Assembly (NCBI GenBank): GCA_963700285.1
Contig: CAVOXA010000001.1
Coordinates: forward strand, 800,001-864,000
Direction of reading: 5' to 3'
DNA from: an uncultured Chloroflexia bacterium
Lineage (GTDB): Bacteria; Chloroflexota; Anaerolineae; JAAYZQ01
Length of the DNA stretch: 64,000 nucleotides
The notes beneath the pieces were generated by a model that saw only the letters and a list, made by a program, of their open reading frames with translations, searched no databases and was not told where the DNA came from. Position numbers and translations under genes: made by a program. Each line of letters opens with the position of its first letter. Position 1 is the stretch's first letter. Of this stretch, positions 3,435-31,941 are shown in pieces.

Positions 3435-4391
3435 TCATGGGTCTGGGTCCTCGGTAGTATCCTGGCACCAGCCGTTTTCCAGCCCAGCAGCATGATAGGC
3501 ATCCAGAGCGGATTCGTACTCTTCCGAAGTGATCTTGCGGCCAAGGACAGAGTCCCCAACCGCCCGGTGAGCCGGGAAGTACTGGTCCATGAGGCTGATA
3601 TGAACGCTGGGTGAGAGGCTTTCTGCAACCCAGCGAAGCACATCATCTGTGCCTGCTTGCCCGGAGGGTAGAACCAGATGGCGGATGATCATCCCGCGCT
3701 GGGCCAGCCCCATCTCATCCAACACCAGCTCTGCCCCCACCTGGCGATATATCTCTTGCAACGCTGCACGATTGTATTCGATGTAATCCGAGAACCCGGA
3801 GAGCTTCTTGGCTATGTGGTTGTTGGCATATTTGGCATCGGGCAGCCAGATATCGACAATGTTCTCCAGTAGATGCAATACCTCGGACCGTTCGTAGCCG
3901 CTGGTGTTATAGACCAAGGGCAGTCGCAATCCACCTTCGATAGCGGCCGGCAGAGCAGCCATCATCTGAGGCATAAAGTGGGTGGGGGTCACAAAGTTGA
4001 TATTGTGTGCCCCTTTGCGCTGCAGTTCCAGCATGATCTCGGCCAGCCGCTCAATGCTCACACGATCGCCGTAGCCGAGCTGGCTGATGGGATAGTTTTG
4101 GCAGAATTGGCATCGCCCGGTGCATCCAGAGAAAAAGATGGTACCTGAACCGTGCGTACCGCTGATAGGTGGTTCTTCCCACGCGTGCAGATTCCAGCTT
4201 GAGAGTTTCGCTTGGTCGTCCATACGGCATACTCCCCGTTCACCGTCTAGGCGGTCTACGCCACAGAGGTGAGGACAGAGCAGGCATGGAGACAGAAAGC
4301 TCCAAGCTGCCTCAATGCGTTGGGCCAGCTCCCCGCTATGATAAAGCGCCAGATAACCAGGTTCAATCACAATTCGGCCAGAAGCCTCCAT
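3435..4391 (-). CDS. PflX-like radical SAM protein (pyruvate formate-lyase activating enzyme family); start uncertain
   Basis: CLLCPHLCGVDR, WEEPPISGTHGSGTIFFSGCTGRCQFCQN (CxxxCxxC), GAHNINFVTPTH, IIRHLVLP. Confidence 0.85.
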   Translation of the reverse strand: MEASGRIVIEPGYLALYHSGELAQRIEAAWSFLSPCLLCPHLCGVDRLDGERGVCRMDDQAKLSSWNLHAWEEPPISGTHGSGTIFFSGCTGRCQFCQNYPISQLGYGDRVSIERLAEIMLELQRKGAHNINFVTPTHFMPQMMAALPAAIEGGLRLPLVYNTSGYERSEVLHLLENIVDIWLPDAKYANNHIAKKLSGFSDYIEYNRAALQEIYRQVGAELVLDEMGLAQRGMIIRHLVLPSGQAGTDDVLRWVAESLSPSVHISLMDQYFPAHRAVGDSVLGRKITSEEYESALDAYHAAGLENGWCQDTTEDPDP

Positions 4392-4699
4392 CCACAAGTT
4401 CACAGACCTCAGGCTCTGTCTGCTGACGATCCTCGTTCTGCGCTCGGGCAGAACGTGGAAAGCCATTATAGGGCTGACCGTCGAAGGTGTCAACTGAACT
4501 TGATCTACCCACCCAGCCCTCCGGGTTCGCACAAGTGTAGCCATAGCCTATGACTTTTGTATTGAGGGCGGTTCACCCAGGCCAACACGCCAATGGCCGT
4601 ACTTGGCTACGGAGAATACCCCCCGAGATTGGGGTCCACAGGAATGAACCGCGCATCTCTGGCTAAATGCACCTGGCAAAGCTTGGGGCAGATGTGTCA

Positions 4700-4728
4700 T
4701 TGACCGATGTTTGGAACTGTGCTATCAT
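4700..4728 (+). promoter_or_regulatory. Sigma70-type promoter upstream of the ECF gene
   Basis: TTGACC-N17-TATCAT with extended -10 TG; it overlaps ATG 4707, so that ATG is unlikely to be the real start. Confidence 0.5.
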
Positions 4729-4919
4729 GTGGCGACTATCCTCTGGCGCGGGCCATGTTTTTCGGTGCTTCTAGGATGTTTTTGGGGACAGCGGGTTGGT
4801 ACGAAGGGGGCTCTCTGGCAAGCGCCACCAGGGGAGATAGAGCGCGGCCCGGCCTGAAGCAAAAACGAGAATGCTTGCTTCAGGAGCCGTATCCTTTCGG
4901 AGAGCTAACCGGTATAACA

Positions 4920-5582
4920 GTGGATGTCGATGATGCTCTGAGTGTACCTGAGGTGTCGGTATCTCAGGAACCGCATAGCAAAGTGGGTCACTTTGAGCTA
5001 GCCAAGCGCAAGGATAGGCAGGTCTCGTCTGGAGTTCGCCAGGGGGAAGGCCGTCTGGTCAACCAGGCTAGGCGGGGTGACAATCGGGCGTTCAGCGAGC
5101 TATATCGACGCCATGTTGACATGATCTATCGCTATGCCTATGCTAGGGTAAGGGATGCGACGATAGCTGAGGACCTGACGGCTCAGGTTTTTCTCAAGGC
5201 CTTTGAGGGTTTGCCGAACTATGAACCCCGGGGGGCGCCATTTTCGGCCTGGTTGTATCGCATAGCCCATGCCAGAATCGTTGATTACTGGCGCCAACAG
5301 CAGCGCCGCCAAGAGGTGGGCTTGCTAGAGAGTTTGCCGGCAACAGATCCTCAGCCCGAGGATATCGTTCTCGCCAAATCAGAGTGGAAAGCCGCCGTCG
5401 ATTTGCTGGCTCAATTGACAGACGATCAGCGCGATGTGATCATACTGCGGTTCATCGAGGAAATGAGTTTGGCAGAGGTAGCTGAAACACTGGACAAGAC
5501 GGTCGGTGCGGTTAAAGCGTTGCAGCATCGCGCTCTGGCATCGCTGGCGCGCATACAGAGAGCACAGGTTTCTGCTCTGTGA
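4920..5582 (+). CDS. ECF-subfamily RNA polymerase sigma factor (start uncertain: GTG 4920, 4953 or 4983)
   Basis: Region 2 AFSELYRRH..AEDLTAQVFLKAF..FSAWLYRIA; region 4 LTDDQRDVIILRF..SLAEVAETLDKTVGAVKALQHRAL; stop overlaps the next start (GTGA). Confidence 0.93.
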   Translation: MDVDDALSVPEVSVSQEPHSKVGHFELAKRKDRQVSSGVRQGEGRLVNQARRGDNRAFSELYRRHVDMIYRYAYARVRDATIAEDLTAQVFLKAFEGLPNYEPRGAPFSAWLYRIAHARIVDYWRQQQRRQEVGLLESLPATDPQPEDIVLAKSEWKAAVDLLAQLTDDQRDVIILRFIEEMSLAEVAETLDKTVGAVKALQHRALASLARIQRAQVSAL

Positions 5583-8500
5583 CCGAGATGGCTGAGGATT
5601 TCACCTCGATCCTGGAACAATGCCTGGGTCAGATCGGTGCTGGCAAGTCGACGATCTGGAACTGCCTGGCCCGGTATCCAGAACTGGCTGGTGAACTGGA
5701 ACCCCTGCTGCTAGCGGCCGAACAGATGTGGCTAGTTCCCAAACCTGTATTGTCCTCCGAGGCCAGGGCCAGGATCGATGTACAGGTGTTTAGTGTAGCC
5801 GGTGCCAGCGAGCAACGCCGGCCCGCCGTAGGCCAGCCCCCAAGCGCTGGCCGAAAGAGGGGCTGGACATCCGTCTGGCGGTGGGCTGCCACGGGACTGG
5901 CTTTCCTCGCCGTCTTTTTTCTGTCATTTACGTTCGTCGCGGATGCCGTAGGCAAGACCCTGCCAGGTTCTCCCCTTCACCCTGTCAAACTGGCTGCAGA
6001 GAATACTCGTCTGTGGCTGGCTCCCTCCCAGAACAAGCCGAAACTGCAACTGGAGTTTGCTAGGCGCCGTTTGGAGGAGGTGACAGCGCTAACCGAGCTT
6101 GGGGATGTGGATGCCTCGATCGTGAATGCTATGACCGAGGAGACAGAAGCTGCTCTCATGGGTCTTGCGTCACTGCCTCCGGATGCGGCCGTGCCGCTTA
6201 TGGGTGACATGGTGGCATTGATTTCTGACCAGGATCAGACCTTGTCCCGCATGATTGAGGGTTCGCCGGCCGGATTGCGGGATCAAGTCGCAACAGCGTT
6301 GGAGTTGAATGCGGCGCAAGCGGCTCGTTCACGCTCACTGGTTGGTTCGTTACCCATGCCACCTTCTATCGCCGTGCTCGCGACGGCCAACCTGGACAGT
6401 GTACCTGAGCCAGAAGGAGAGGTGGAGTATACGGTTTCGGTGACCAATGATGGAGCGGAGCGAGTCACGGTAATATCCCTGTTGAGTGACATCCGTGGAG
6501 ACCTTGATGGCCAGGGCACCTGCTCTTTGCCCCCGGAAGGCATCTTGCTGAGCCCTGACGAATCATATGTCTGTACCTTTGGCGCCGTCGTCGCAGGCAA
6601 CGCCGATCAAGCGCAAACTGATACGGTGACAGCGGTGGTCATGGACGATGAGGGCTTTGAGGCCAGGGTATCCACAAGCGCCACGGTGCTGGTCGGCGAT
6701 GTGGCGCCTACGATTGGGATTTACAGGACCGCGAACCCCGACAGCCTGCCTGAGCCTGGGGGCGTCGTTCAATTCAAGGTGCGGGTGACCAACGTTGGGC
6801 TTGAAACTGTCATCCTAACCGGTCTCGAGGACGGCGAGCGCGGTGATCTGAACGGTTGGGGTACTTGTTCGCTGCCCCCGGAGGGAATCACGATCAACCC
6901 TGGTGGGGCCTACGAGTGTACCTTCAGCGCCAAGGTTTCCGGCAACGCTGCTACGAAAAAACCCAATATCGTGACCGCCATAGCGGCCGATGATGAGGGC
7001 AACACAGTCCAGTCTTCGGCAAGCGCTGTGGTGTCTTTCACTGACGTACTTCCGGTGGTTGCCGTGAGCAAGGCGGTGCTCCCCAGCAGTGTGCCAGAGC
7101 CCGGGGGTACGGCGCAGTTTACTGTGCGGGTGACCAATGTGGGAGTCGAGGATGTCCGCCTTGATGCGCTGGTGGATGACGTTCATGGAGATCTGCATGG
7201 GAGGGGAACCTGTTCCCTGGCACCTGGTGAGGTGGTCATCACTCCTGCGGAAACCTACGAGTGCTCATTTGCTGCGATGGTGGCCGGCAACGCTGGGGAA
7301 AGCAAGATGGCTGTAGTCACAGCCATTGTATCCGACGATGAGGGAAACAGAACCGGCGCTTCCGATAGCGCAAGTGTGACTATCGCTGATGCTCTTCCGG
7401 AGATAGATGTCAGCAGAACGGCAGAACCGGCCCGAGTGCCTGAACCAGGGGGCAAGGTAGAGTTCACGGTACGCGTTGTCAATCGGGGGCCTGAAAGCCT
7501 CGAACTTGTATCATTGGTAGATGATGCGCTCGGTGATCTGAACGGGAAGGGAACCTGTTCTGTGCTGCCCGGTGAGACGATTATTGAGCCTGGTGGGTTC
7601 TACCAGTGCAGCTTTGTCTCCCACGTTTCTGGGAATGCAGATGACGCGTGGACTGATGTAGTGAGTGCCGTAGCTTTGGACGATGAGAGCAACTGGGCGA
7701 AGGCTGCGGGCAGCGTTACAGTGGTTGTCACCGATGTGGCACCCCTGATCAGCGTGCGAAAGACGGCGAGGCCCAGCAGTGTGCCCGAGCCCGGGGGAGC
7801 GGTGGAATTTACCGTGAGTGTGACCAATCAAGGCGTGGAGGATGTCAGTCTCCTTTCGCTCCTGGATGACAACCACGGTGACCTGCATGGGCTAGGTACT
7901 TGTTCCCTGCGGCCGGACGAGATGAGAGTCAGCCCCGGTGATACCTACACGTGCCGCTTCAGTACTGTGGTCTCTGGCAAGCCAGCGGAGAGCTGGACCG
8001 ATACTGTCACGGCTGTCGCATCGGATGACGAGGGGAACAGGGCAAGGGCAGCTGCTGCTACGAGGGTGACCATCAGAGACGTGCTGCCGGCGATAGCTGT
8101 CAGAAAGACGGCAATGCCAAATCGTGTGCCTGAACCAGGAGGCAGTGTCAAGTTCACGGTACGCGTTACCAACAATGGGGCTGAGCAAGTCGTCCTGGAT
8201 GCGCTGGTAGATGATGCTCATGGCAACCTGAGTGGCCAGGGCACCTGTTCGGTGCCGCCTAGTAAGGTTATGATCGATCCTGGCACCGCCTACGATTGTT
8301 CCTATTCTGTTGTTGTTTCTGGCAATGCTGGGGATGTGGAGACGAGCGCGGTGACCGCTGCGGTGTCGGATGATGAGGGCAATAGGGCCAAGGCTGTGGG
8401 CAGTACTGCGGTGGCCACAATCGACGTCCCACCGCAGATTGACGTGAACCTGGTGGCAAAGCCGGACACGGCACCCGAGTCGGGGGGGAAGATTCAGCTT

Positions 8501-10366
8501 AGGGTGCGCGTCACCAACGAGAGCTTTGAGGCAATCCATATCAAGTCTTTGATGGCCGCATCTCGCGGTGATCTGAATGGGCGGGGTAGTTGTTCTGTGC
8601 CTGAGGGGGGGATCCTATTAGGTCCCCAGCGCTCGGATGGCCCAGGTGAGTCCTACGAATGCACCTTCAGTGCAACGGTGGCTGGCAATGCGGCAGAGAT
8701 CCTTACCGAGACGATGTACGTTGTGGCTGTGGACGACGAAGGAAACGAGGTCAAGGCTGGAGCCAGTGATACTGTGACCCTCACTGATGTGCTGCCGGCG
8801 ATCAGGGCCAGTCAGACGGTCGAACCCGGCAGTGTGCCGGAGCCTGGGGGCAAGGTGACGTTCTCCCTGGTTGTGAGCAATGAAGGAACTGAAGAGATTA
8901 CTCTAGATGCGCTGGTGGGCGATGTCCTCGGCGATTTAAACGGACAGGGTACCTGTTCTGTGCCGCGAACAGGGGTAGCGATTCGGCCGGGACGATCCTA
9001 CACCTGTGAGGTTCAGGCTAGCGTCTCGGGAAATGCTAGAGAGAGCAAGGCCAGCACGGTGACGGCGGTCGCCTCGGACAATGAGGGCAACGAGGCCCAA
9101 GCTTTGACAGACGCCACGGTGACCTTCACCGATGTATTGCCATCGCTCCTTGTGAGCAAGGTGGCGGAGCAAAGCAGCGTGCCGGAGCCAGGCGGAGGTA
9201 TAGCTTTCACGGTGCGCATCAGCAACGCGGGAGCTGAGGCCTTTACCCTCAATTCCGTGGTAGATGACCTACATGGTGACTTGAATGGGCAGGGTACCTG
9301 CTTTGTGCCCCAAGAGGGGATATCGCTCCAGGGCGGCGAGTCCTATGTCTGTAGCTTCCAGTCCGAAATCTGGGGCAACGCTGGGGTGACCGAGACCGGT
9401 ACTGTGACAGCCGTGGCCTCGGATGATGAGGGCAACAAGGTGAGTATTTCGGACAGTGCTACGGTGGCGATCTCGGATGTGCTGCCGGCGGTTGGAGCGA
9501 GCATAACGGCGAGTCCCAGCAAGCTGCCAGAGCCGGGAGGAGTTGTGCTGTACTCTGTCAGGATCGCGAACCAAGGGATCGAAGAGCTTTCCCTCGATTC
9601 GTTGGTGGACGATGTCCATGGGAATCTGCTCGGGCAGGGTACTTGTTCAGTACCACCTGAAGGCATAACACTTGGACCAGGGAGTTCCTATGAATGCAGC
9701 TTCCAGGCCGATGTCAGAGGCAACGCTGGGCAGAATAGTACCAATCTTGTTTCGGCCGTGGCCTCCGACGATGAAGGCAACGAAGGACGAGCGGCGGCGG
9801 GTGTCACTGTGGTCATCACTGATGTAGTCCCGGCGATCGGAATCGACGTGTTAGCGAGCTCCGGCAACGTGGTGGCGCCAGGTGGGGAAGTTGAGTTCTC
9901 GGTACGCGTCAGTAACCTGGGCGCTGAGGCTGTGACTCTGGCCAGAATGGTCGATGACGTCTATGGGGACATGAATGGCCTGGGCTCATGCTCCCTTGTA
10001 GCAGGAGAAACGACGATTGGCCCTGGCGGATCGTACGAGTGCACATTTGCCGCTGAGGTTTCTGGAAATGTTGGGGACAGTGTGGTCCACACCGTGACGA
10101 TTGTAGCTTTCGATGATGAGGGCAATGACGTTGCGGCCGCTGCCGACGTGACTGTCACCATCATCGACAATCCCGAGTCCTCAGCTGCCGTCATCTGCCA
10201 ACCAGGCGCCGGTGCGGATGTGGCATGCCCGAACTGGGCGCCGTTGGCGCCGGTGGCTGCCAAGAATAACAGTCTGCTCGCGCCAGTACACCCTTGGCTC
10301 CGGGGCATTCGCATCTCCGGTTCTGTCGATCATCCTGGCACCCCACTTGTAGGAATTCCCACCTAG
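5579..10366 (+). CDS. Putative anti-sigma factor: cytoplasmic N-domain, TM, DUF5667-like helical domain, 11 extracellular Ig-like repeats
   Basis: Coupled to ECF; N-terminal LEQCL..CLARYPELAGELEPLL; TM ATGLAFLAVFFLSFTFVA; LPGSPLHPVK..ARRRLEE motif; 11 repeats of about 115 aa with VPEPGG..VTNxG..GDLNGxGTCS..YxC..GNA..DDEGN. Confidence 0.8.
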   Translation: MTEMAEDFTSILEQCLGQIGAGKSTIWNCLARYPELAGELEPLLLAAEQMWLVPKPVLSSEARARIDVQVFSVAGASEQRRPAVGQPPSAGRKRGWTSVWRWAATGLAFLAVFFLSFTFVADAVGKTLPGSPLHPVKLAAENTRLWLAPSQNKPKLQLEFARRRLEEVTALTELGDVDASIVNAMTEETEAALMGLASLPPDAAVPLMGDMVALISDQDQTLSRMIEGSPAGLRDQVATALELNAAQAARSRSLVGSLPMPPSIAVLATANLDSVPEPEGEVEYTVSVTNDGAERVTVISLLSDIRGDLDGQGTCSLPPEGILLSPDESYVCTFGAVVAGNADQAQTDTVTAVVMDDEGFEARVSTSATVLVGDVAPTIGIYRTANPDSLPEPGGVVQFKVRVTNVGLETVILTGLEDGERGDLNGWGTCSLPPEGITINPGGAYECTFSAKVSGNAATKKPNIVTAIAADDEGNTVQSSASAVVSFTDVLPVVAVSKAVLPSSVPEPGGTAQFTVRVTNVGVEDVRLDALVDDVHGDLHGRGTCSLAPGEVVITPAETYECSFAAMVAGNAGESKMAVVTAIVSDDEGNRTGASDSASVTIADALPEIDVSRTAEPARVPEPGGKVEFTVRVVNRGPESLELVSLVDDALGDLNGKGTCSVLPGETIIEPGGFYQCSFVSHVSGNADDAWTDVVSAVALDDESNWAKAAGSVTVVVTDVAPLISVRKTARPSSVPEPGGAVEFTVSVTNQGVEDVSLLSLLDDNHGDLHGLGTCSLRPDEMRVSPGDTYTCRFSTVVSGKPAESWTDTVTAVASDDEGNRARAAAATRVTIRDVLPAIAVRKTAMPNRVPEPGGSVKFTVRVTNNGAEQVVLDALVDDAHGNLSGQGTCSVPPSKVMIDPGTAYDCSYSVVVSGNAGDVETSAVTAAVSDDEGNRAKAVGSTAVATIDVPPQIDVNLVAKPDTAPESGGKIQLRVRVTNESFEAIHIKSLMAASRGDLNGRGSCSVPEGGILLGPQRSDGPGESYECTFSATVAGNAAEILTETMYVVAVDDEGNEVKAGASDTVTLTDVLPAIRASQTVEPGSVPEPGGKVTFSLVVSNEGTEEITLDALVGDVLGDLNGQGTCSVPRTGVAIRPGRSYTCEVQASVSGNARESKASTVTAVASDNEGNEAQALTDATVTFTDVLPSLLVSKVAEQSSVPEPGGGIAFTVRISNAGAEAFTLNSVVDDLHGDLNGQGTCFVPQEGISLQGGESYVCSFQSEIWGNAGVTETGTVTAVASDDEGNKVSISDSATVAISDVLPAVGASITASPSKLPEPGGVVLYSVRIANQGIEELSLDSLVDDVHGNLLGQGTCSVPPEGITLGPGSSYECSFQADVRGNAGQNSTNLVSAVASDDEGNEGRAAAGVTVVITDVVPAIGIDVLASSGNVVAPGGEVEFSVRVSNLGAEAVTLARMVDDVYGDMNGLGSCSLVAGETTIGPGGSYECTFAAEVSGNVGDSVVHTVTIVAFDDEGNDVAAAADVTVTIIDNPESSAAVICQPGAGADVACPNWAPLAPVAAKNNSLLAPVHPWLRGIRISGSVDHPGTPLVGIPT
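6362..10172 (+). repeat. 11 tandem ~345-bp Ig-like domain repeats
   Basis: Counted by the recurring PEPGG, GxGTCS, YxC and DDEGN motifs; diverged at DNA level. Confidence 0.9.
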
Positions 10367-10548
10367 GACAGACTGGACTGTTTGGGGATTGCGATCCCAC
10401 GGTGCCGGATGCATGCGTGGGGTGCGTTGCCGATGTTTTTCCGAGAGGGATTGGGCGGGGCGGTGAAGCGGGTGGTCCAGCAAAGAGAACGTTTCGATCT
10501 ATGCCATCTATTAGGTTTTCTTAGGCTGGGAAAAGGAGGGGCAACTGA

Positions 10549-12072
10549 ATGTCTATTCGCGACTATGTTGAGATCCTGTTGCGACGCAAGTGGATAATCA
10601 TTATCACCTTCGCATTGGTGATTGCTATCACAATCGTGGCTACTCTGCTAACGGAACCGATGTACCGCGCGTCCACCATGATGCGAGTGCTGTCGGTCAG
10701 TGGGGGCTCGTCGGGTGACTGGATCGCGTACGACACCAAACAGGTTGAGCGATTGATGAGTACCTATGCCGAGTTTGCCACCAGCCGGCCCGTGTTGCAG
10801 GAACTCAGTCAAAGACTTGAGTTGGAGGAATGGCCTCAGATTTCTGTGGAGATTCTCAACAACACCGAGTTGATGCAAATCACTGCCGAAGCGAGAGATC
10901 CGGTAGTAGCCAGGGACACTGCCAATGCTCTGGCGGAGGTCATGATTGCACAAAGCAGGGAGTTGTATACCGGTGGTGGCAAGACAGCCCAAGAGATACT
11001 TGTCGAACAGTTGGAACAGGTCAAGGGCGAGCTGGATGGAGTTTGGACTGAGTATGAGGCCCTGATCGCCCAATCTCCTGAAGCAGCGGATCAGATTGCA
11101 GCCGCCAGTCGGGCGATCGAGTTGAAGGAAGGTACGTATGCTACGCTGCTCGATCAATATGAGAGAAATCGTGTCCGAGAGGCTGTGCTGGCCAACACGC
11201 TGTCGATCATTGAACCAGCGATAGCACCCCGCAATCCAGCCAAGCCACGCAGTGAGCTGAATATTGCCCTGGGTTTGGTCATAGGCCTTGGCGGAGGTCT
11301 GGCCTTGGCTTTCTTGATAGAGAGCCTGGATACCACGCTCTATTCTGTAGAGCAGATCAAGAGGTCCACCTCATTGGCCATTCTGGGTAAGGTGCCTGCC
11401 GTGGGTCGGCAGGCTCAGAATTCACTCTTCAACGGGTCTTCTCCGCAAGGAGAGGCATTCCGTCGTCTGCGTACCAACTTGCTTACACTCGACTACGATT
11501 CCCCTCTTCGGTCCTTGTTGATCACGAGTGCGGAACCGAAAGAGGGCAAGTCGACGATAGTGTCCAATCTGGCCTTCGCCGTAGCTCAGTCAGGACGTCA
11601 GGTCGTCACGGTGGATGCTCACTTGCGACTACCAACGCTCCACAAGGTATTCGGTCTGTCCAATAGGGTTGGTCTGAGCAGCGTGCTTGAAGACAAGGCC
11701 TCGCTGGAGGATGCGATGCAGGAGACCGGAATCGCGGGCGTCCACGTGTTGACGAGTGGCCCTCTGCCGCCCAACCCCGCCGAGCTGCTAAGTTCTCCAC
11801 AGATGACGGCACTCATCGAGCGATTGACCGGACAGTATGACATGCTCTTGCTGGATACACCCTCTATCCTGGCGGTTACCGATGCAGCAGCGCTGGCCAG
11901 AAGCGCGGACGGCGTCCTGTTGATCGTGGAGCGGGCACGGGCACGCCAGGAAAGCGTGCGCGCGGCGACTCAACAGTTGGCAGACGTCAGGGCCAACCCG
12001 ATTGGCATCGTCGTGAATCGCTCGCAGCCGGACAGTGCCTACGACTACTACAGCCGGGTACCGACAGGTTGA
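10549..12072 (+). CDS. wzc: Polysaccharide co-polymerase / tyrosine autokinase (Wzc/CapB-like)
   Basis: Wzz-like N-terminal TM, coiled region, second TM, GEAFRRLRTNL, Walker A EPKEGKST, Walker B LLLDTP, Tyr tail AYDYYSR. Confidence 0.9.
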   Translation: MSIRDYVEILLRRKWIIIITFALVIAITIVATLLTEPMYRASTMMRVLSVSGGSSGDWIAYDTKQVERLMSTYAEFATSRPVLQELSQRLELEEWPQISVEILNNTELMQITAEARDPVVARDTANALAEVMIAQSRELYTGGGKTAQEILVEQLEQVKGELDGVWTEYEALIAQSPEAADQIAAASRAIELKEGTYATLLDQYERNRVREAVLANTLSIIEPAIAPRNPAKPRSELNIALGLVIGLGGGLALAFLIESLDTTLYSVEQIKRSTSLAILGKVPAVGRQAQNSLFNGSSPQGEAFRRLRTNLLTLDYDSPLRSLLITSAEPKEGKSTIVSNLAFAVAQSGRQVVTVDAHLRLPTLHKVFGLSNRVGLSSVLEDKASLEDAMQETGIAGVHVLTSGPLPPNPAELLSSPQMTALIERLTGQYDMLLLDTPSILAVTDAAALARSADGVLLIVERARARQESVRAATQQLADVRANPIGIVVNRSQPDSAYDYYSRVPTG

Positions 12073-12160
12073 AGGGATCGTGGCTGTCAGCTACGACTGT
12101 CAGCCGCTTGCAGAGAATCGAGATTGGTGATTACACTCATTGGGATGCGGCGTTGAGACC

Positions 12161-13000
12161 ATGCTAGTGGATTTTGCGATAATTGGGGCACAGAAGTGTG
12201 GCACGACCAGCTTGGCCGCCCAACTGGCGGAGCACCCAGGCATCTGTTTCTGTGAGATCAAGGAACCTGGATACTTTCACAGGGTAGAGGATTGGCAGTC
12301 TGGTCTTGAAGCCTATCATCGGCTGTACGCGCCAGAAGCAGGCCAAATCTGCGGTGAAGCATCTACTATGTATACATTTCTTCCCGAGTGGCAGGGAACC
12401 CATTCCAGACTCTTTGCGTATAACCCAAACCTGAAGTTGATATATGTCATGCGGCAGCCCGTCGAGCGAGTCATATCCAACTACTCGCACGACCTGGTAA
12501 GAGGTTTTGTCAAAGCCCCGCCAGAGACAGCAGTTTTTGAGGATCCCACCTACATCAATCGCAGCCGGTACACTGTTCAGATGCGGCCTTACCTGGAGCT
12601 CTTCCCGCGAGAGAACATCCTACTGTTGGTCTTCGAAGAGTATGTCGCCAATCAACCCCAGACACTGCAGCAGATTGCTGCCTTTCTTGGTATCTCATCA
12701 GGTGCCTTTACCGATACGGGTTCAATGGACAAGCACAAGTCGGTTGGCCAGACCTATCTCAAGAACTCTGCGATACGGGCATTGGTCAGGTCCAGGGCTT
12801 TCCAGGCAGTACGACCGCGTCTGTCGGCATCCATCCGGCGGCCGATTCGGCGCCGCCTGGCGAATGAACTGTACGAAAAGCCACGCTTCTCACCGTCACT
12901 TAGGCAAGTGATCTGGCGTTTTGTAGAAGACGATGTTCATGGAGTGGAGGAGCTTCTAGGACGGCGCCTCGATGTGTGGCGCCTCGGGGAGACCGGATGA
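12161..13000 (+). CDS. PAPS-dependent sulfotransferase (heparan sulfate O-sulfotransferase-like)
   Basis: 5'-PSB motif IIGAQKCGTTSL, KEPGYF, GEASTMY, 3'-PB motif MRQPVERVISNY. Confidence 0.9.
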   Translation: MLVDFAIIGAQKCGTTSLAAQLAEHPGICFCEIKEPGYFHRVEDWQSGLEAYHRLYAPEAGQICGEASTMYTFLPEWQGTHSRLFAYNPNLKLIYVMRQPVERVISNYSHDLVRGFVKAPPETAVFEDPTYINRSRYTVQMRPYLELFPRENILLLVFEEYVANQPQTLQQIAAFLGISSGAFTDTGSMDKHKSVGQTYLKNSAIRALVRSRAFQAVRPRLSASIRRPIRRRLANELYEKPRFSPSLRQVIWRFVEDDVHGVEELLGRRLDVWRLGETG

Positions 13001-14358
13001 AGCAGCTAGCCTATCCCAGAAGGGTCTTGAGTTTCCGCTTCGAGCAATCGCGCCTGAGCTCGGCCCGTGTCCTTCCGCTCATTGACTTTATGCTCATTGT
13101 TGCCTTTCTGCTGGATCTCTTTACCTCCTATCTCACTTGGAAGGGTTACTTGCCCGAGGTTGTGACTTCGATTTCCCAGCTCTTGGTGGCCGCAGCGGTT
13201 GCGTTCGCGTATACGCGGATGATGATGCTCAACCGCATCCCTGCTGGTGTGTGGGCGCTTCTGGGAGTCTCAGCCATCGGATTCACCGTAGCGCTCTTTC
13301 GGGGGCAGGGCCTCGTTGCGACGCTTTGGGGCTGGTGGAACCTGTTCAAATACCCGATGCTGGGGATTTATGCCTATCTTCGTCTGCGCTGGCCAGACGA
13401 TTTCGCACAAACGCTGACGAGAGTCTGCTTTGGAATAGTGGCATTTGAGACGGTCTTTCAGATCTTCCAATATGTAACAGGCGAGCCCATCGGGGACAAC
13501 TTGGCTGGGACATTCGGTTGGCACGGCGTTAACCATATCCTCTTTCTTACCTGTCTTGCCTTGAGCCTGGCCCTGGGCCTTTGGGTGGCTGAAGGACGGT
13601 GGCGGCCACTGTTGGCAATCTTGGTCCTGGGTGCCGTGGCAAATGTGTTGGCCGAAAATAAGATCTTTCCAGTTGCTGCCCTGGCCATGTCTGCGATTGC
13701 CATCGCTATGTACGTCCTCCGGCGCGGTCAACTATCAAGGCTGCTACTATTCGGCGTTTTGGTAGTGGCCGGTCTCTGGTTATACTCAGCCGGATACAAC
13801 AGTTTCGTGCCGGGCGCCGATAGAGAGCCCCTTGAGAGGCTCTTTGTGGAGGAAGATGCCCGCGAGAACTATTTGAATAAGGTGAAGCGATCAGAGACGG
13901 CGGAGCAACAAACCTACAATCTTGGTCGAAATGTGGCCGTGGAGTATGCTCTGAGTACCCTAAGTGGGGACGCCGTGCTCATGGGGTTTGGTTTCGGCTT
14001 GGGAGCTCGGAGCCAGAGTGGCACGCTGGGTGTGTCAGGTGCCGCGCTCGAGCAGGACAGTTTTGATCGGGGCAGCCAGCTTGTGGCGATTTTGCAGGAG
14101 ATGGGCCTCTTTGGTCTGGTCATGGTTACGGGCTTCACAATGTGGGTGTCGGTCAGGCTGTGGCTCGATGCCAGGCGCAACCCAGAGTCGCCGGCAACCA
14201 GCTTGCGATACGGCCTGCTTTTCTTCTCGCTATGCTGGCCAGTTTGGCTGTGGTACAAGAACCCATTGGGGGCTGATGTGGCCATGATGCTCTACTGGGT
14301 TGGGCTGGGCTATGTACTGAGTGAGCCTCACCTGGAACACCTGAGCGATCGACTGTAG
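12997..14358 (+). CDS. Wzy-like polysaccharide polymerase / O-antigen ligase-type membrane protein
   Basis: About 10-12 TM segments with a large loop and FGFGLG..ILQEMGLFGL; position in the locus. Confidence 0.65.
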   Translation: MKQLAYPRRVLSFRFEQSRLSSARVLPLIDFMLIVAFLLDLFTSYLTWKGYLPEVVTSISQLLVAAAVAFAYTRMMMLNRIPAGVWALLGVSAIGFTVALFRGQGLVATLWGWWNLFKYPMLGIYAYLRLRWPDDFAQTLTRVCFGIVAFETVFQIFQYVTGEPIGDNLAGTFGWHGVNHILFLTCLALSLALGLWVAEGRWRPLLAILVLGAVANVLAENKIFPVAALAMSAIAIAMYVLRRGQLSRLLLFGVLVVAGLWLYSAGYNSFVPGADREPLERLFVEEDARENYLNKVKRSETAEQQTYNLGRNVAVEYALSTLSGDAVLMGFGFGLGARSQSGTLGVSGAALEQDSFDRGSQLVAILQEMGLFGLVMVTGFTMWVSVRLWLDARRNPESPATSLRYGLLFFSLCWPVWLWYKNPLGADVAMMLYWVGLGYVLSEPHLEHLSDRL

Positions 14359-15579
14359 TTGGTTCAGGTTGGTCGGAGTGGTAGATTGAGCGATGCTGTG
14401 AGGGATAGAGGGCTACCATCTGTTTTGTGGGTATCGGCCAGGCCCATGGCCTCTGCCCTGGATTCTGCAACCTGGCTGGAGACGACCCGTGAGCTGCGTC
14501 AGCAGGGCTGGCCCATCACGCTGGTCGGTGAAGGCCCTGCTGGCGAGCACTGTATTCAGGGCGTCACAGTGCATTGCCTGCCAAAGTCCCGGGCGTATGG
14601 CTTGGGCTATTGCCTCTTTCACTTGAGGCTATGGCGATTCTTGTTCCAGCAGAGGGCCAATTACGATGCCGTTCTCTTCCATCAGAAGTCGGCGCCATGG
14701 GTTCTACCTCTTCGCTTGGTGCGGAGGCTTGGGGCTTGGAGGCGCCCGCTGTTGACAATGGATACACGGGATGTTGTAGCGGCAGGCACAAGCCTGAGAA
14801 ACCGGCTGCGCCGGCTCTACTTCCGCTGCGCACATTGGCTTGCCAATCAATGGGCAGATGGTCAGATGGCGATCACTCCGCGCATGGCCCAGCTAGTGGG
14901 CATCCCATCCGCCCAACTGTGGGGTACTTGGCCATCAGGCGTCGACCTGGAGCGATTTCGGCCCGCCCAGGCTGGACGGCAGTGGCCTGGCCCGGGGCGT
15001 TCGATCCATTTGATGTACATTGGCAAGTTTGTGCGAGATCGCAACCTCACGCTTTTGTGCCGGGCTGTCGAGCGCGCAAACCTGGAGGGCATGGCCTTTG
15101 CTCTGTCTCTTATCGGCGATGGACCTGAGCGGCAAGCTCTGGACGAGGCAGCGAGGAGTGCTGAGGGAGCCATTCACGTTGGATCGCCGGTGCCCCATGA
15201 CCGGGTCCCTCAACTGTTGAAGCAGGTTCACGTTGGAGTGACATCGCTACCATCGTCAATCGATAGAAAGTTTGAGGCGTCCAGCCCGATCAAGCTGTTT
15301 GAGTACATGGCTGCTGGGCTGCCAGTGATGGCTACGGACAATGCCTGCCATACAGATGTGGTTGGTGAGGGTACCTATGCGTTTTGGGTCCGGGAAGCCA
15401 GCGAGGAAGGAATGCTGGCGACTCTCCGTCTGGTGGCTCGGTCCCAGAAGAGCCTGGGTGACAAAGGTGCCGAAGCGGCTGCTGCTGCCCAGGCATGGAC
15501 GTGGGAGGAAGCTGGCAGGAAACTTGGACTGGCTCTGGAGCGCGGGCTACTGGGGCCTGCCGGTCGGCCGCCCGCATAG
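14359..15579 (+). CDS. Glycosyltransferase family 4
   Basis: WPSGVDLERF, LIGDGPER, SSPIKLFEYMAAGLPV. Confidence 0.9.
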   Translation: MVQVGRSGRLSDAVRDRGLPSVLWVSARPMASALDSATWLETTRELRQQGWPITLVGEGPAGEHCIQGVTVHCLPKSRAYGLGYCLFHLRLWRFLFQQRANYDAVLFHQKSAPWVLPLRLVRRLGAWRRPLLTMDTRDVVAAGTSLRNRLRRLYFRCAHWLANQWADGQMAITPRMAQLVGIPSAQLWGTWPSGVDLERFRPAQAGRQWPGPGRSIHLMYIGKFVRDRNLTLLCRAVERANLEGMAFALSLIGDGPERQALDEAARSAEGAIHVGSPVPHDRVPQLLKQVHVGVTSLPSSIDRKFEASSPIKLFEYMAAGLPVMATDNACHTDVVGEGTYAFWVREASEEGMLATLRLVARSQKSLGDKGAEAAAAAQAWTWEEAGRKLGLALERGLLGPAGRPPA

Positions 15580-15623
15580 TCATGTTTGGGTCCAGCAGAA
15601 GCGCTTTTATCCCGAGGGTAGGT

Positions 15624-16757
15624 ATGGAAGTCGAAACGAAGCCTCTAAAAGTTCTCATTGTAAGTCGGTCCTTCGAGTTTCGAGGTGGGGTCGCGAACTA
15701 TGTGCAGGCGCTGGTGGAGCATACAGACACTGATCGCGTCTCATTCACGCACGTAGCTGTGTCAAAGGCTGAAGTCTCAAGTTCAGGGTGGCGCCGCCCC
15801 TTTGAATACCTGGACAGCATTGTGCGCTTTGGCAGGGCGGTTCTCGACGTACGTCCCGATGTGGTTCATCTGAACCCTTCGCTGAATAGTCGCTCCCTGC
15901 CCTTGCATGTCTGTCTGCTCCTTGTGGCCAAGGCGTTTGGGCAGTCCGTGTATTTGTTCTTCCATGGCTGGGACGACCGCGTAGCTCTGGCCATGATGAA
16001 CGGTACGTGGATGGGTCGCTTGTTGAGAGGCGTGCTGCGCAAGGCGGACTATTGTTCTGTGCTATCGGAGCAGTTTCGGAATCAGTTGATCCAGGCTGGC
16101 TGGGATCCCTCTCGTGTGCAGGTTCTACCGTTGATGATAGATGTTGCTGCCTATCAGCGACGTGCAGAGCGAGGGGAGACAGAATCGGACGGGAATGAGT
16201 CATTTCACGTGCTCTTCCTTTCCCGTTTGGCGCCTGACAAGGGTGTCTGGGAGTTGATGGATGCGGTTGAATGGCTCAAGGGAGCCTACCCCGATGCTCC
16301 GCTTTACTTTACATGTGCAGGCGATGGCTCGGAGTATGAGGGCCTCAAGGACTATGTACAGGCCAAGGGATTGGCTGACATGGTACATCTTCCAGGCTAT
16401 TTGCGTGGCGAGCAAAAACATACTGCCTACCGTAGCGCCGACCTATTCGCGTTCCCTTCTTTTCATGCTGAGGGCTTTCCCATCGCGGTCATTGAATCGC
16501 TGGCCGCGGGATTGCCAGTTGTCTATACACCAGTTGGCGCCCTGGCCGAGATCCTTGGGCCGGAAAATGGGACCCGAATCGAGTTGGCCGACGTATCAGG
16601 CGAAATCCTTGGGGAAGAGATCTGGAACTTGTATCGAGATCCGGATCGCCGCCGGTCCATGGGAGCGTTCAACCAGCAGCTTGCACAGCGGTTTGATGTT
16701 CGCCTCGTGTGCGCAGACACGGTTGATCTGTATCGGCGAGTGGCGTCCAGGAAATGA
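15624..16757 (+). CDS. Glycosyltransferase family 4
   Basis: GGVANY, LFLSRLAPDKG, FPSFHAEGFPIAVIESLAAGLPVV. Confidence 0.9.
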   Translation: MEVETKPLKVLIVSRSFEFRGGVANYVQALVEHTDTDRVSFTHVAVSKAEVSSSGWRRPFEYLDSIVRFGRAVLDVRPDVVHLNPSLNSRSLPLHVCLLLVAKAFGQSVYLFFHGWDDRVALAMMNGTWMGRLLRGVLRKADYCSVLSEQFRNQLIQAGWDPSRVQVLPLMIDVAAYQRRAERGETESDGNESFHVLFLSRLAPDKGVWELMDAVEWLKGAYPDAPLYFTCAGDGSEYEGLKDYVQAKGLADMVHLPGYLRGEQKHTAYRSADLFAFPSFHAEGFPIAVIESLAAGLPVVYTPVGALAEILGPENGTRIELADVSGEILGEEIWNLYRDPDRRRSMGAFNQQLAQRFDVRLVCADTVDLYRRVASRK

Positions 16758-17728
16758 AGCCTGTAATCAGTGACTCAGCAACACAACATAGAACAGTTGT
16801 GGACGGCCATTTGGCGCGTACACCGGCACAGCGCAAACCGTTGGTGGTCTATATCATGGGCGACGGGCGCAGTGGGAGTACCGTGACCAGTGTTGTGCTG
16901 GGCAATCATCCGTGCATCTCGAGCAATGGCGAGCTGCACAAGTTCGCCAGATACTGGGGTCATCCAAAGAGGGACAACGACAAGGAGAAAGACCTACGCT
17001 TCTGGAAAGAGGTACGAGATTATTTCCAGTCAGAGGGACTGTCTACGGACTACAAACATCTGGAAGACTTGCAGGGCAAGATTGAGAACTATGGCAGCTT
17101 TTGGAGATTGCTGTTCCATCGCGTTCCGGTAGACATCTGTTCCGAGTACTGTACGCACGTAAGGGGCTTGTTCAGAGCCATTAGCGCGGTAAGCAAAAGG
17201 GACATCATTGTGGACGAGTCCAAGAGGCCGACTCGCGGTTATGCACTTCTCCGTTGCCCAGATCTGGATGTACGTATCATTCACCTGGTACGCGATCCGC
17301 GGGGTGTGGTATGGTCGCAGAAAAAGCGTTCGGTCGAACACATGTACAAGTCTCCTCTCACCGCTGGGTTGCACTATTCTACCAAGAACTTGATGTCGCT
17401 CCTCGTTCATCTGAGGGCTCCCCGTGGGAGAGTCATGCGGGTCCGATATGAGGATTTCGTGAGAGAGCCTGCAGTAGAATTGACCAGAATCGGCAAGTTC
17501 CTGGATCTGTCGATGGTCCCGGTCATCGAGAGAATAGAGGCCGGCGAGCCTTTGCAGGTTCCGGTCCTTTTGGATGGAAACCGAATTCGGTGTGAGAAAG
17601 AGATCACACTGCGGTTTGATGATTCTTGGCGCAGACGACAGAGCTTGGGGGAGCGTCTTACAGCGATTCTGTCCACCCTGCCTTTCTTTCTTCGGTTTGG
17701 CTATTGGAATTACCCGTACGATTCATAG
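16754..17728 (+). CDS. Sulfotransferase
   Basis: YIMGDGRSGSTV, IVDESK, HLVRDPRGVVWS, VRYEDFVREP. Confidence 0.88.
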   Translation: MKPVISDSATQHRTVVDGHLARTPAQRKPLVVYIMGDGRSGSTVTSVVLGNHPCISSNGELHKFARYWGHPKRDNDKEKDLRFWKEVRDYFQSEGLSTDYKHLEDLQGKIENYGSFWRLLFHRVPVDICSEYCTHVRGLFRAISAVSKRDIIVDESKRPTRGYALLRCPDLDVRIIHLVRDPRGVVWSQKKRSVEHMYKSPLTAGLHYSTKNLMSLLVHLRAPRGRVMRVRYEDFVREPAVELTRIGKFLDLSMVPVIERIEAGEPLQVPVLLDGNRIRCEKEITLRFDDSWRRRQSLGERLTAILSTLPFFLRFGYWNYPYDS

Positions 17729-17786
17729 GCAGCATTGCGGATGGCAGAGCGGGTAGTACTTGAACTTTTGCGAATGATGGATCTGG

Positions 17787-18959
17787 ATGGTACCTACTGA
17801 CGAGAGCCTACGAAATGCAATAGTGCGCCTGGACGAATGGGTTCAAGCCGCGGGCTATGGAGCCTACGATCCTTTTGATGGACTGAACTCGTGGATCCGT
17901 CCGCTCATGCTCAATAGGCTGAGCCGTCAGGCCTTGCAGCAGGGTGTGAAGCGTTCTCCTGTGAACCTGCGGCCCGTGCTTGGCATCCGGCCAGCGATCA
18001 GTTCGAAAGGCATGGGGTATTTTGCTCGAGGATATCTAAAGCTCTATGCGTTGACGGGTGAAGCGGAGTGGGCTACCAAGGCGCGCCATTGCTTGGATTG
18101 GCTCAGGGCTCATCCCAATCCTGCTTACGCGGGACTTGCCTGGGGCAATCACTTTGACTATCAGTCCAGGGTGTTCTACCTTGCTAAAGGTGAGCCTACC
18201 GTTGTGTGGACAGCCCATATCGCCTTCGCTTTCTTGGATGCCTGGGAGCTTTTTGGAGAGGATAGGGATCTTGAAGCGGCGCAGGGTGTGTGCCGGTTCA
18301 TCCTGAGCGAACTCGAGCGTCGTCCTGAGGGTGGTGGAGTATGTATCAGCTATGTACCTGGCAGCTACCACGCTGTTCACAATGCGAATATGCTGGCGGC
18401 GGCGGCCTTGGCCAGAACATATGCGCACACGAACCTGGATGAGCTTAGGCAGACAGCCTTGGACGCAGTGGCCTATACGGTGCCTGCGCAACGGGATGAC
18501 GGATCCTGGTGGTATGGTGAGGCGGAGAATCTGAGATGGGTGGACAATTTCCATACAGGCTATGTACTGGACTGCTTGTGGTGGTACATGGTCTCTACGG
18601 GGGACCAGCAGTGGCGGCCGGCATTTGACTATGGCGCTCGCTTTTTCATAGAAAGCTTTTTCCTGGAAGATGGCACGCCCAAGTACTACCCCGACCAGAC
18701 CTATCCAGTTGATATTCAGTGCGCGGCACAAGCGATTGAAACCTTGGCTCTACTGGCCAGGCATTGGGATCTTTCGTGTCGGGTGCTAGCGGAGCAAGTG
18801 GCGGCGTGGACCGTTGCCAACATGCAAGACGTGGATGGCCACTTTTACTTCCAGCGTGGACGTAGGTGGGTGAACAAAACGCCAATGCTCCATTGGGGCC
18901 AGGCAACGATGTTCCATGCCCTGGCTTGTCTACTTGAGGTGGAGAGCGATGAGGATTAG
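17787..18959 (+). CDS. Conserved polysaccharide-locus protein, probable (alpha/alpha)-barrel
   Basis: YDPFDGLNS, WGNHFDYQSR, VHNANML, WYGE..WVDNFHTGY, PVDIQCAAQAI, HWGQATM; Trp/Tyr-rich helical hairpin pattern. Confidence 0.6.
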   Translation: MVPTDESLRNAIVRLDEWVQAAGYGAYDPFDGLNSWIRPLMLNRLSRQALQQGVKRSPVNLRPVLGIRPAISSKGMGYFARGYLKLYALTGEAEWATKARHCLDWLRAHPNPAYAGLAWGNHFDYQSRVFYLAKGEPTVVWTAHIAFAFLDAWELFGEDRDLEAAQGVCRFILSELERRPEGGGVCISYVPGSYHAVHNANMLAAAALARTYAHTNLDELRQTALDAVAYTVPAQRDDGSWWYGEAENLRWVDNFHTGYVLDCLWWYMVSTGDQQWRPAFDYGARFFIESFFLEDGTPKYYPDQTYPVDIQCAAQAIETLALLARHWDLSCRVLAEQVAAWTVANMQDVDGHFYFQRGRRWVNKTPMLHWGQATMFHALACLLEVESDED

Positions 18960-20265
18960 TGTTCTTGGTTTAGGCTATGTGGGCTGTGTATCGGTTGCCT
19001 GCATGGCTGCAGACGGACACCAAGTAGTCGGCGTTGACATCAATCCGGTCAAGGTGGATATCATCAATCGGGGTTGCAGCCCCATCGTCGAGCGTGACCT
19101 GGACGAACTGCTCGAAGAGGGAGTATCTCAAGGCCGGCTTCGGGCCACGGTGGACGCAACGGAAGCTGTGCAGCAGAGCGATCTCAGCCTTATCTGCGTG
19201 GGAACCCCCGGTGACTCTAACGGGCGGCTTGACCTGCAGTATGTCGAACGGGTCTCGGCAGATGTAGGGCGCGCCTTGCAGAGCAAGGCCAGGCATCACG
19301 TGGTCGTCGTACGCAGCACGATGCTGCCGGGTAGTACAAATGACATCGTTCTGCCTATTCTAGAACGAGAGTCGGGTCGAAGGGCGGGGGAGGGTTTTGG
19401 ACTGGCCTACAATCCAGAGTTCCTGAGGGAGGGATCTGCCATCAGAGACTACTATGATCCCCCTAGGACGGTGATAGGCGAGTTCGACGAGTCCAGCGGG
19501 GATGCTTTGGCCGCCATCTATCAGAATTTGGACGCACCCTTGATCCGGACCAGTATCAAGACGGCCGAGTTGGTCAAGTATGCGGATAATGCTTTTCATG
19601 CGCTCAAGATCTCTTTCGCCAACGAAATCGGTGTGATGGCTGGGGCTGAAGGGATCGATAGCCACGAGCTAATGGATATCTTTGTCCAGGACACCAAGCT
19701 TAACCTGTCGCCGGTGTATTTGCGGCCCGGATATGCTTTCGGCGGGTCTTGCCTGCCCAAAGATCTGAGGGCCCTGAACCATCGGGCCCGGAGAAGAGAT
19801 CTGTCGACCCCGGTACTGGCATCCATCCTAGAGAGCAACGAAGGCCATAAGCGCCGTGCTTTTGCACTTGTGAAGGAGACGGGCAAGAAGCGGGTGGCCG
19901 TCCTGGGACTAAGCTTCAAGCCGAATACGGACGACTTGCGGGAGAGCCCCGCGGTCGAACTGGTGGAGAGACTGCTGGGCAAAGGATATCAGCTCAAGAT
20001 CTATGATCGGAACGTCGCCCTGGCCAGGCTTGTGGGTGCGAACAAGGAGTTCATCGAGAGAGAAATTCCCCACATCGCGTCGCTCATGGTGCCCGATGTT
20101 CAAAGCGCATTGGCTGATGCAGAGGTGGTGGTCGTGACTAGTGGCGATGCAGAGTTTCGCCAGGTGGCCGGTAGGCTGCGCCCCGACCAGATTCTTGTGG
20201 AGCTAGAGCGTGTCGTCGATGATGTGAGCGGGTTGGGGGAGAGATACCATGGCATTGCCTGGTGA
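18949..20265 (+). CDS. algD: UDP-glucose/GDP-mannose dehydrogenase family, AlgD (GDP-mannose 6-dehydrogenase)-like
   Basis: GLGYVGCVS, CVGTP, NPEFLREGSA, KYADNAFHALK, YLRPGYAFGGSCLPKD, GLSFKPNTDDLRESP, C-terminal GIAW. Confidence 0.8.
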   Translation: MRISVLGLGYVGCVSVACMAADGHQVVGVDINPVKVDIINRGCSPIVERDLDELLEEGVSQGRLRATVDATEAVQQSDLSLICVGTPGDSNGRLDLQYVERVSADVGRALQSKARHHVVVVRSTMLPGSTNDIVLPILERESGRRAGEGFGLAYNPEFLREGSAIRDYYDPPRTVIGEFDESSGDALAAIYQNLDAPLIRTSIKTAELVKYADNAFHALKISFANEIGVMAGAEGIDSHELMDIFVQDTKLNLSPVYLRPGYAFGGSCLPKDLRALNHRARRRDLSTPVLASILESNEGHKRRAFALVKETGKKRVAVLGLSFKPNTDDLRESPAVELVERLLGKGYQLKIYDRNVALARLVGANKEFIEREIPHIASLMVPDVQSALADAEVVVVTSGDAEFRQVAGRLRPDQILVELERVVDDVSGLGERYHGIAW

Positions 20266-21502: not shown

Positions 21503-21523
21503 CAGAGCCCCATGTAGCCGGAG

Positions 21524-22165
21524 ATGGCTTGGCAGGCCACACAGGAGCAAAGGGTGAAAGATTTCTTTGTGCATCCGAGCGCCCTAGTTGAGTCTGAGGA
21601 TATTGGTCCTGGTACCAAGATCTGGGCGTTCGCGCACGTTCTCAAAGGAGCCAGGATTGGTCGCGACTGCAATGTGGGCGATCATTGTTTTATTGAGAAC
21701 AACGTTCGTATCGGGGACCAGGTTGTGGTAAAGAATGGTGTTTCCGTCTGGTCGGGGGTCACGCTAGAGGACTATGTTTTCGTCGGTCCCAATGCGGTCT
21801 TTACCAATGACCTGTATCCCCGAGCCAAGGTATACCACGCAGAGGACGTGGAGACGCTGGTCTGCAGAGGGGCCACCCTTGGCGCCAATGCTACGCTTCG
21901 TTGTGGCATTAGGGTGGGACGTTGGGCCATGATTGGAGCGGGTAGTGTCGTGGTTCACGACGTGCCCGACTTTGCCCTGGTCTATGGGGTACCGGCACGA
22001 CAACAGGGATGGGCATGCGCCTGCGGTGAGCGCCTAGAGTTCCCGGTGAAGGGAAGCAGTCGTGCAACCTGCCGGTGTGGTCGTTCCTTTTCGCTTTCGA
22101 ACGGGCGAGTACGTGAGGATGCGCCCATACGCCCTCCTTCAGAAGATACCAAACGTATGGAGTGA
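21524..22165 (+). CDS. Hexapeptide-repeat N-acetyltransferase (WbpD/WxcM-like) with C-terminal Cys cluster
   Basis: IGPGTKIWAFAHV, VFVGPNAVFTND, IGAGSVV, GVPAR..GWACACG..CRCG. Confidence 0.88.
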   Translation: MAWQATQEQRVKDFFVHPSALVESEDIGPGTKIWAFAHVLKGARIGRDCNVGDHCFIENNVRIGDQVVVKNGVSVWSGVTLEDYVFVGPNAVFTNDLYPRAKVYHAEDVETLVCRGATLGANATLRCGIRVGRWAMIGAGSVVVHDVPDFALVYGVPARQQGWACACGERLEFPVKGSSRATCRCGRSFSLSNGRVREDAPIRPPSEDTKRME

Positions 22166-22171
22166 GAAACT

Positions 22172-23341: not shown

Positions 23342-23388
23342 CCAGGGGACGGGGTTCGTGCTCTACGCTCGATGGGCAACCCTGGTCA

Positions 23389-25244: not shown

Positions 25245-25253
25245 GGGGTTTCA

Positions 25254-26414: not shown

Positions 26415-26428
26415 AGAGACGGGAAACG

Positions 26429-27463: not shown

Positions 27464-27466
27464 CCA

Positions 27467-29661: not shown

Positions 29662-29816
29662 TCTCGGTTTGAAGGCGATGAGATTGCCGGATGTGCTATT
29701 GGGTGTGCCCTTTGGCCGGATGACCTGCGGGCCCCAGTCTGGGTACAAGGCCAGCGGGTGCTCTCCAATCAGAAACTGCCATGGCTTGCTGTCTGCCAAA
29801 GGATCGTGGAGGACAT

Positions 29817-31928: not shown

Positions 31929-31941
31929 CCAGGGGGGCTCA

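Follow-up and report, generated by a model that had tools for sequence, protein, structure and literature searches.

A predicted anti-sigma factor with an eleven-domain extracellular rod at the head of a Chloroflexota surface-glycan locus

Why would the membrane partner of a sigma factor carry a rod of eleven extracellular domains, and why does the pair stand at the head of a surface-glycan locus? The question is raised by a 64,000-nt stretch of DNA (the window, whose positions serve as coordinates here, on the + strand unless marked) from a Chloroflexota genome. In it, the stop of the gene for an ECF (extracytoplasmic function) sigma factor overlaps the start of a gene for a 1595-aa membrane protein in the letters GTGA (5579-5582), as the initial annotation had it and as the open reading frame (ORF) calls bear out. 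G-, L- and P-numbers denote compared genomes, loci and proteins, with G000 holding the window; the papers cited are drawn on in part. The two proteins are very probably a sigma/anti-sigma pair. For the rod, we favour an explanation in which we place about as much belief as doubt, namely that it is a fixed-length, cleavable probe of the outer coat that releases the sigma factor for surface-glycan genes.

The sigma factor and its membrane partner

The sigma factor matches Pfam regions 2 and 4 over cut-off, with region 3 unmatched, a layout that fits ECF (group 4) sigma factors. Compared with 99 NCBIfam families, it scored best against BldN (TIGR02952; 152.7 bits, below the cut-off of 206.45), and its closest match in the Protein Data Bank (PDB) is also BldN (6dxo). 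The conserved hem-gene context of BldN/ECF121 (PMC7826278, supplement) is not present at the window locus, where the sigma gene neighbours are a radical-SAM gene and wzc.

The partner (5579..10366) begins with a cytoplasmic, predicted sigma-binding N-domain (aa 1-76; 5579..5806). Its only cysteines are C15 and C29, both of them consensus residues of the family, and it holds neither histidine nor the HxxxCxxC motif, which agrees with the earlier description of a two-cysteine domain other than a ZAS. A single transmembrane segment (aa 102-124; 5882..5950), the one hydrophobic segment of the protein and also present in the structure model, had likewise been noted, as had the DUF5667-like domain behind it, which Pfam matches at aa 127-197 (33.7 bits against a cut-off of 27). 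In the model of this head, four helices make up the N-domain; the transmembrane segment comes next, and behind it lies an all-helical juxtamembrane bundle of five helices (aa 127-257; 5957..6349). The rod spans aa 260-1530 (6356..10168), and a 65-aa tail with two cysteines, no second transmembrane segment and no sortase motif ends the protein (10169..10363).

The pairing of the sigma factor with the N-domain was supported by structure prediction. The predicted complex scored 0.71, compared to 0.01 for the best of three controls; 116 of 157 pairs with solved structures attained this level, as did 2 of 215 mismatched pairs. Contact agreement between runs was at least 84%, with a predicted local distance difference test (pLDDT) value of at least 82 for the partner. 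Moreover, PMC6101532 names 18 contact positions in BldN, and 13 of them lie within the predicted interface (BldN numbering, aligned). The models predict that the N-domain binds the sigma factor much as RsbN binds BldN. In the class III mode, sigma-4 is contacted by N-terminal helices and sigma-2 by a long helix. The head lies directly 3' of a BldN-like sigma gene in all 23 collected pairs, which were collected on that criterion. Fold searches with the head returned generic helical bundles and did not list RsbN, which we take to carry a DUF5667 domain. A charge-swap at the Arg67 salt bridge of RsbN was dropped, as the alignment held no equivalent conserved residue.

The sigma gene likely starts at a leaderless GTG at 4920, giving a protein of 220 aa (4920..5582), just past an ECF-type promoter-like motif. 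This in-frame GTG lies 4 nt past CGTATC-N16-CGGTAT (4888..4915) and is kept in G000, G001 and G002, and the ATG of the sigma gene lies 5 nt past the motif in G006, G009, G016 and G022. The 42 codons that it adds ahead of the core are open and ungapped in three genomes, yet show no codon-position bias and are a weak candidate for coding sequence and for the N-terminal pro-extension of the BldN family. An ATG at 4707 was rejected as the start: it falls inside a conserved sigma-70-type promoter-like site (TTGACC-17-(TG)cTATCAT, 4700..4728; score 10/12, with TG), and in G001 the reading frame is not open at that point. This site, the probable basal promoter of the operon, is kept in G001 and G002 and is also found upstream of the sigma gene in G006, G016 and G022.

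The rod and its repeats

The rod consists of eleven repeats of 115 aa (121 aa in repeat 7) with mutual identities of 39-56%. Each has two cysteines and an acidic turn, as first described; the turn reads DDEGN in eight repeats and DDEGF, DDESN or DNEGN in the others. As a correction to the first description, the repeats belong to a described family, DUF7507 (Pfam score 169.3 bits against a cut-off of 27, with five stretches passing alone); DUF11 also matches them, under cut-off per stretch. DUF7507 has been renamed CLIPPER_2 and is described with a Lys-Asp-Asn isopeptide triad that some members lack, and in a DUF11 (CLIPPER) domain the isopeptide bond was shown to protect against proteases (PMC12617251). 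Consistent with this assignment, the repeats were modelled as all-beta sandwiches (pLDDT 93.8) that match the CLIPPER structure 9ifr (Z 8.3, root-mean-square deviation 2.7, 98 aligned, 22% identity) among many immunoglobulin (Ig) folds. A search of the PDB by sequence with a repeat pair gave no match.

Triad positions were set by spacing, at K, K+35 and K+80 (K, K+40 and K+80 in the example of PMC12617251). In the window rod, none of the eleven repeats carries K-D-N and one carries K-D-D. Across eight rods the triad K-D-[N/D] is intact in 18 of 88 repeats, and in a ninth in 2 of 12 (20/100 together), compared to 42 of 45 repeats (14 K-D-N, 28 K-D-D) in 12 ordinary surface proteins, a comparison given without a P value as the rods are kin. 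A probable rod fragment, P0007 (845 aa, 7 repeats, 3 triads), was excluded from both counts. The Cys pair, by comparison, is kept in 100/100 rod repeats. The exact DDEGN turn occurs in 66/88 rod repeats versus 9/45 repeats of the other proteins, and the window rod is strongly acidic (176 D+E vs 68 K+R). The initial annotation had likened the rod to Ca-stiffened adhesin rods, a class marked by Ca2+ at acidic interdomain sites; the conserved acidic turn is at most a candidate for such a site, and the repeat family is known for isopeptide cross-links. The sequences show a rod made of adhesin-stalk domains that have mostly lost their isopeptide residues. Past repeat 11, we found no Pfam domain and no second transmembrane segment that would point to an adhesive tip or a sorting signal; the tail itself is absent from the rods of G002, P0005, P0006 and P0111, which stop right after the last repeat.

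Two surface proteins of G000 (C1:1229043-1231109 and C5:94095-96452) contain the same repeat module. They have five and two CLIPPER_2-type repeats, all K-D-D, and a PPDTG-transmembrane end, and each lies beside a divergent sortase. On these proteins, the idea of Lys-Asp bonds within a CnaA-like fold could be tested.

The architecture is rare, as had been proposed. At E<=0.001, the head is shared by 29,503 cluster representatives that match its profile, and the best 150 matches have a median length of 423 aa; the two that exceed 1000 aa are both rod forms. A head-plus-repeat query was matched in 47 of 61 related genomes, the relatives being labelled Chloroflexota, and a rod is fused to the head in 3 of 23 family genomes (2 of 16 genera). 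Most tails of the 20 partners without a rod are P/T-, E- or K-rich and of low complexity, and three that were tested are DUF5666 arrays. The three rod sigma factors form one clade (support 95) that adjoins short-tailed pairs. Where the initial annotation had looked to homologs for variation in repeat number, little was seen: among nine full-length rods, eight have 11 repeats and one has 12. No shorter head-plus-repeat form was present among nine matches to a query that held little of the head. The deep rod lineages are ~52% identical overall and few of their repeats pair by position, which suggests a repeat count that outlasted divergence or reshuffling of the units. A quick, poorly resolved repeat tree gave no support for independent expansions to 11.

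Two more pairs of a BldN-like sigma factor and a DUF5667-type partner are encoded in G000 (C9:232666-234613, +; C1:448873-447000, -), with P/E/T-rich tails; the partner of the latter is apparently split over two frames. In P0028, P0050, P0080 and P0095, the head profile matches several stretches each, which suggests repeated N-domains ahead of DUF5667/DUF5666.

The promoter motif and the glycan locus

The motif CGTATC-N16-CGGTAT is found upstream of the sigma gene in exact form in 7 of 25 relatives, and with at most one mismatch in 11 of 25. With a matrix built from ten further genomes, G000 had 17 hits, the window site on top, versus none in simulated DNA; some of the weaker hits resemble promoters of the housekeeping type. 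A stricter pattern, drawn up once the matrix hits were known, found five sites at the correct spacing versus one over seven wrong spacings, and 21 matches versus no reversed controls in five relatives. This conservation suggests that the motif is likely recognised by its own sigma factor and that the operon is likely autoregulated from it. The paralogous pairs in G000 have variants of their own, GTATCC..CGTTAG (C9) and GTAACC..CGTTAA (C1).

Further sites in G000 precede an O-antigen-ligase/Wzm-Wzt locus, an amino-sugar-type acetyltransferase-oxidoreductase pair and a surface-protein operon. The two glycan sites lie at C1:1809957 and C1:1341636. G001 has all three sites, and G002 shares the one before the surface-protein operon. 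With the self site and one duplicate dropped, 3 of 15 non-self sites had glycan-type genes within 3 kb, compared to 1.9% of random positions (P ~0.003); two of the 3 also occur in G001. The motif sites and this enrichment are in line with the proposed link between the sigma factor and polysaccharide synthesis and indicate a likely surface-glycan regulon. On balance, it is probable from such sequence evidence that the sigma factor controls the glycan locus beside it.

This locus is a run of ~39 kb of same-strand genes (10549..49784; gaps between listed ORFs <=197 nt) for glycosyl-, sulfo- and methyltransferases, nucleotide-sugar enzymes and a flippase. It is headed by wzc (10549..12072), which encodes a Wzz/Wzc-type polysaccharide co-polymerase/autokinase. 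The gene does lie downstream of the partner on the same strand, at a distance of 182 nt (10367..10548) rather than the 183 bp first given. We found no terminator-like and no sigma-70 promoter-like site in this spacer, and the best candidate for a dedicated ECF promoter was rejected (9/12, not conserved). The spacer had been proposed as the sigma-responsive region; since it carries no conserved motif, control of wzc would be by read-through. The order sigma-rod-wzc was found in 4/4 loci with DNA, which upholds the expected synteny. Eleven short-tailed loci listed in full, many on short contigs, gave no wzc match and one GT4 match. In two RNA libraries, short stretches nearly identical to the sigma gene, the partner gene, wzc and the genes that follow were present, but no stretch ran across the spacer; they may stem from carried-over DNA and were not used as evidence.

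Several other motif sites have neighbours of interest. The second-best site precedes a gene at L052:8534-9889 (-; G000 C1:1282533-1283888) for a membrane protein with a Cys/His-rich N-domain, a P/T linker, a folded tip and no Pfam match, and both site and gene also occur in G001 and G002. A two-mismatch copy at 50260-50288 in the window is followed, ~160 nt on, by the gene for a LamG/PKD surface protein of 1304 aa (50448-54362, +) at the end of the glycan locus. An NRPS-like cluster (L055:1-13573, -; G000 C1:1328000-1341572) follows right after the amino-sugar genes behind a motif site. On the other side of the sigma gene, the divergent radical-SAM gene (3435..4544, -) is a conserved upstream neighbour and probably outside the system. 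A perfect TTGACA-17-TATAAT (4465-4493, -) lies within its longest ORF, so its true start is probably downstream of 4544. Farther upstream, 924-3359 (+) encodes a fusion of an AAA ATPase, a transmembrane segment, a P/T linker and a PD40 beta-propeller that is conserved in G001. An Rfam scan of the window gave no matches.

How the rod might work

Two known systems frame the question. In sigma family and structure, the closest is BldN/RsbN of Streptomyces (ECF121, class III anti-sigma; PMC6101532). As with RsbN, the partner is in the +1 position, with its N-terminus inside and a single transmembrane segment, and the predicted binding is mostly on the same sigma surfaces. The BldN motif CGTAAC-N16-CGTTGA (PMC2375139) resembles the motif found here, and BldN/RsbN likewise governs a surface coat (chaplins/rodlins). 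In contrast, the present pair has a Chloroflexota host, a sigma factor under the BldN family cut-off and no hem-gene context; its N-domain has no detectable sequence similarity to RsbN and four helices instead of three, and its ectodomain comprises ~1470 aa compared to 272 aa. Unlike BldN, the sigma factor also apparently regulates its own gene. The second system, SigI/RsgI of Bacillus and Clostridia, likewise has a juxtamembrane domain and a long extension, for which a role in spanning or probing the envelope has been proposed, and its disordered tails recall those of the short-tailed relatives of the window head. However, its sigma family is different, its juxtamembrane domain is a beta-sheet SEAL domain rather than an all-helical DUF5667 bundle, and a disordered linker takes the place of the folded rod, which itself has no carbohydrate-binding tip. 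The system is a rare BldN/RsbN-like variant that, by analogy, would work as RsgI does and is built of other parts.

The rod itself resembles the stalks of fibrillar CLIPPER/CLIPPER_2 (DUF11/DUF7507) adhesins (PMC12617251) in Pfam family, Ig-like sandwich and tandem array, and disulfides are common in that family. Unlike those adhesins, it shares its protein with a predicted anti-sigma head, its anchor is an N-terminal transmembrane segment, it has neither a sorting signal nor an adhesive tip, and the triad is mostly lost. Open-access literature held no description of DUF5667, of an anti-sigma factor with Ig-like tandem repeats or of CLIPPER with an anti-sigma factor. The earlier view that no such regulator had been described thus holds for the exact architecture but not for the antenna idea, which is already the RsgI model.

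If the rod is a cleavable probe of the outer coat, it could work as follows. The housekeeping-type promoter, judging from its conserved site, would give basal expression of the operon, and the N-domain is predicted to clamp regions 2 and 4 of the sigma factor. The rod would project through the envelope, over ~40-50 nm if extended, as estimated from the general size of Ig domains. With its cross-link residues mostly gone, it would unfold or be clipped more readily than the stalk of an adhesin. Thinning of the coat or damage to it would lead to loss of the ectodomain and cleavage of the transmembrane segment by a site-2 protease; M50 proteases and peptidoglycan transglycosylases are encoded in the genome. 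The free sigma factor would then fire CGTATC-N16-CGGTAT, amplifying its own operon with read-through into wzc, and would also activate the other glycan and surface-protein loci that carry the motif. A restored coat would shield new rods and so close a negative feedback loop. As an order-of-magnitude comparison only, an external layer in other Chloroflexota is reported to measure ~30-50 nm (PMC7332563).

Several points weigh against this explanation. The complex score may reflect memory of the solved RsbN-BldN structure, i.e., likeness only, and a search of the PDB with the head profile listed weak helical matches only, RsbN not among them. Two rods keep the triad in 6/11 repeats, its positions were assigned from spacing and not from coordinates, and most intact triads are K-D-D while the CLIPPER-type fold typically uses Lys-Asn; triad loss may also be relaxed selection. 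The repeat number may be constant simply because it was inherited, and the first rod search was limited to proteins of 877-2792 aa. The synteny with wzc represents one ancestral locus, not independent cases, and there are probably internal promoters within the 45-kb locus. The glycan enrichment test was post hoc, with one of its three sites intragenic and 12/15 non-self sites without a glycan-type gene nearby. Finally, the nearest short-tailed relatives share the motif but adjoin Tad pilus genes, which suggests that the regulon concerns surfaces generally. Such Tad/Flp neighbours are seen at L033, L035, L038 and L070, and in G016 the motif precedes genes for a Flp-type pilin and TadE.

Among the alternatives, an RsgI-like sensor of contact or tension, in which pulling on a tethered rod opens the juxtamembrane domain, is unlikely in our view. 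Mechanotransduction of the RsgI type is an established model (bioRxiv 2023.06.27.546760), and both the adhesin-stalk origin of the repeats and the pilus genes beside the nearest relatives would suit it. The initial annotation had included this reading, which is weakened by the lack of an adhesin at the tip (in four rods nothing follows the last repeat), by a juxtamembrane domain that is all-helical rather than SEAL-like and by the loss of most cross-link residues of the stalk.

Less likely still is a multivalent array whose repeats bind the cell's own polysaccharide, perhaps via cations at the acidic turn, with occupancy keeping the anti-sigma factor intact. RbmA, a Vibrio biofilm scaffolding protein that binds exopolysaccharide, is the top Foldseek match of a repeat pair (E 1e-9; Z 10.0 in a wide search), and the DDEGN-type turn is near-invariant in the rods. 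The RbmA match is generic, however, with 401 chains at E<=0.001, a TM score of ~0.3 and many tied Ig folds, and direct binding by an acidic rod would need cation bridges, given a locus that encodes sulfotransferases. To a similarly small degree probable is a passive structural or spacer rod, with the DUF5667 head reading the signal as in its short-tailed relatives, which would fit the huge head family with its diverse tails (disordered P/T/E/K-rich or DUF5666 arrays) and a module available from sortase-type surface proteins of the same genome, but leaves ~1270 extra residues with every Cys pair and a near-constant length kept at only ~52% identity.

The cleavable coat probe can be extended to a bolder proposal, which we regard as doubtful: a dipstick anti-sigma factor, in which a captured adhesin stalk, fixed at 11-12 domains and with its cross-links shed, would gauge the depth of the glycan coat and feed back via a BldN-like sigma factor, DUF5667 marking a large unrecognised family of RsbN-like anti-sigma factors with swappable probes that govern Chloroflexota surface structures. 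By what means bacteria gauge how thick or intact an outer glycan coat is remains largely an open question, and the nature of the Chloroflexota outer layers is disputed (PMC7332563, PMC13319060). With repeats that can be counted like the marks of a ruler, and with a promoter motif and a regulon predicted, coat gauging becomes testable by adding or removing repeats. If true, the proposal would give a function to DUF5667 across the matches to the head profile, would extend RsbN-like anti-sigma factors past Streptomyces, to which PMC6101532, in the part drawn on here, confined them, and would represent an adhesin stalk repurposed with the loss of its cross-links.

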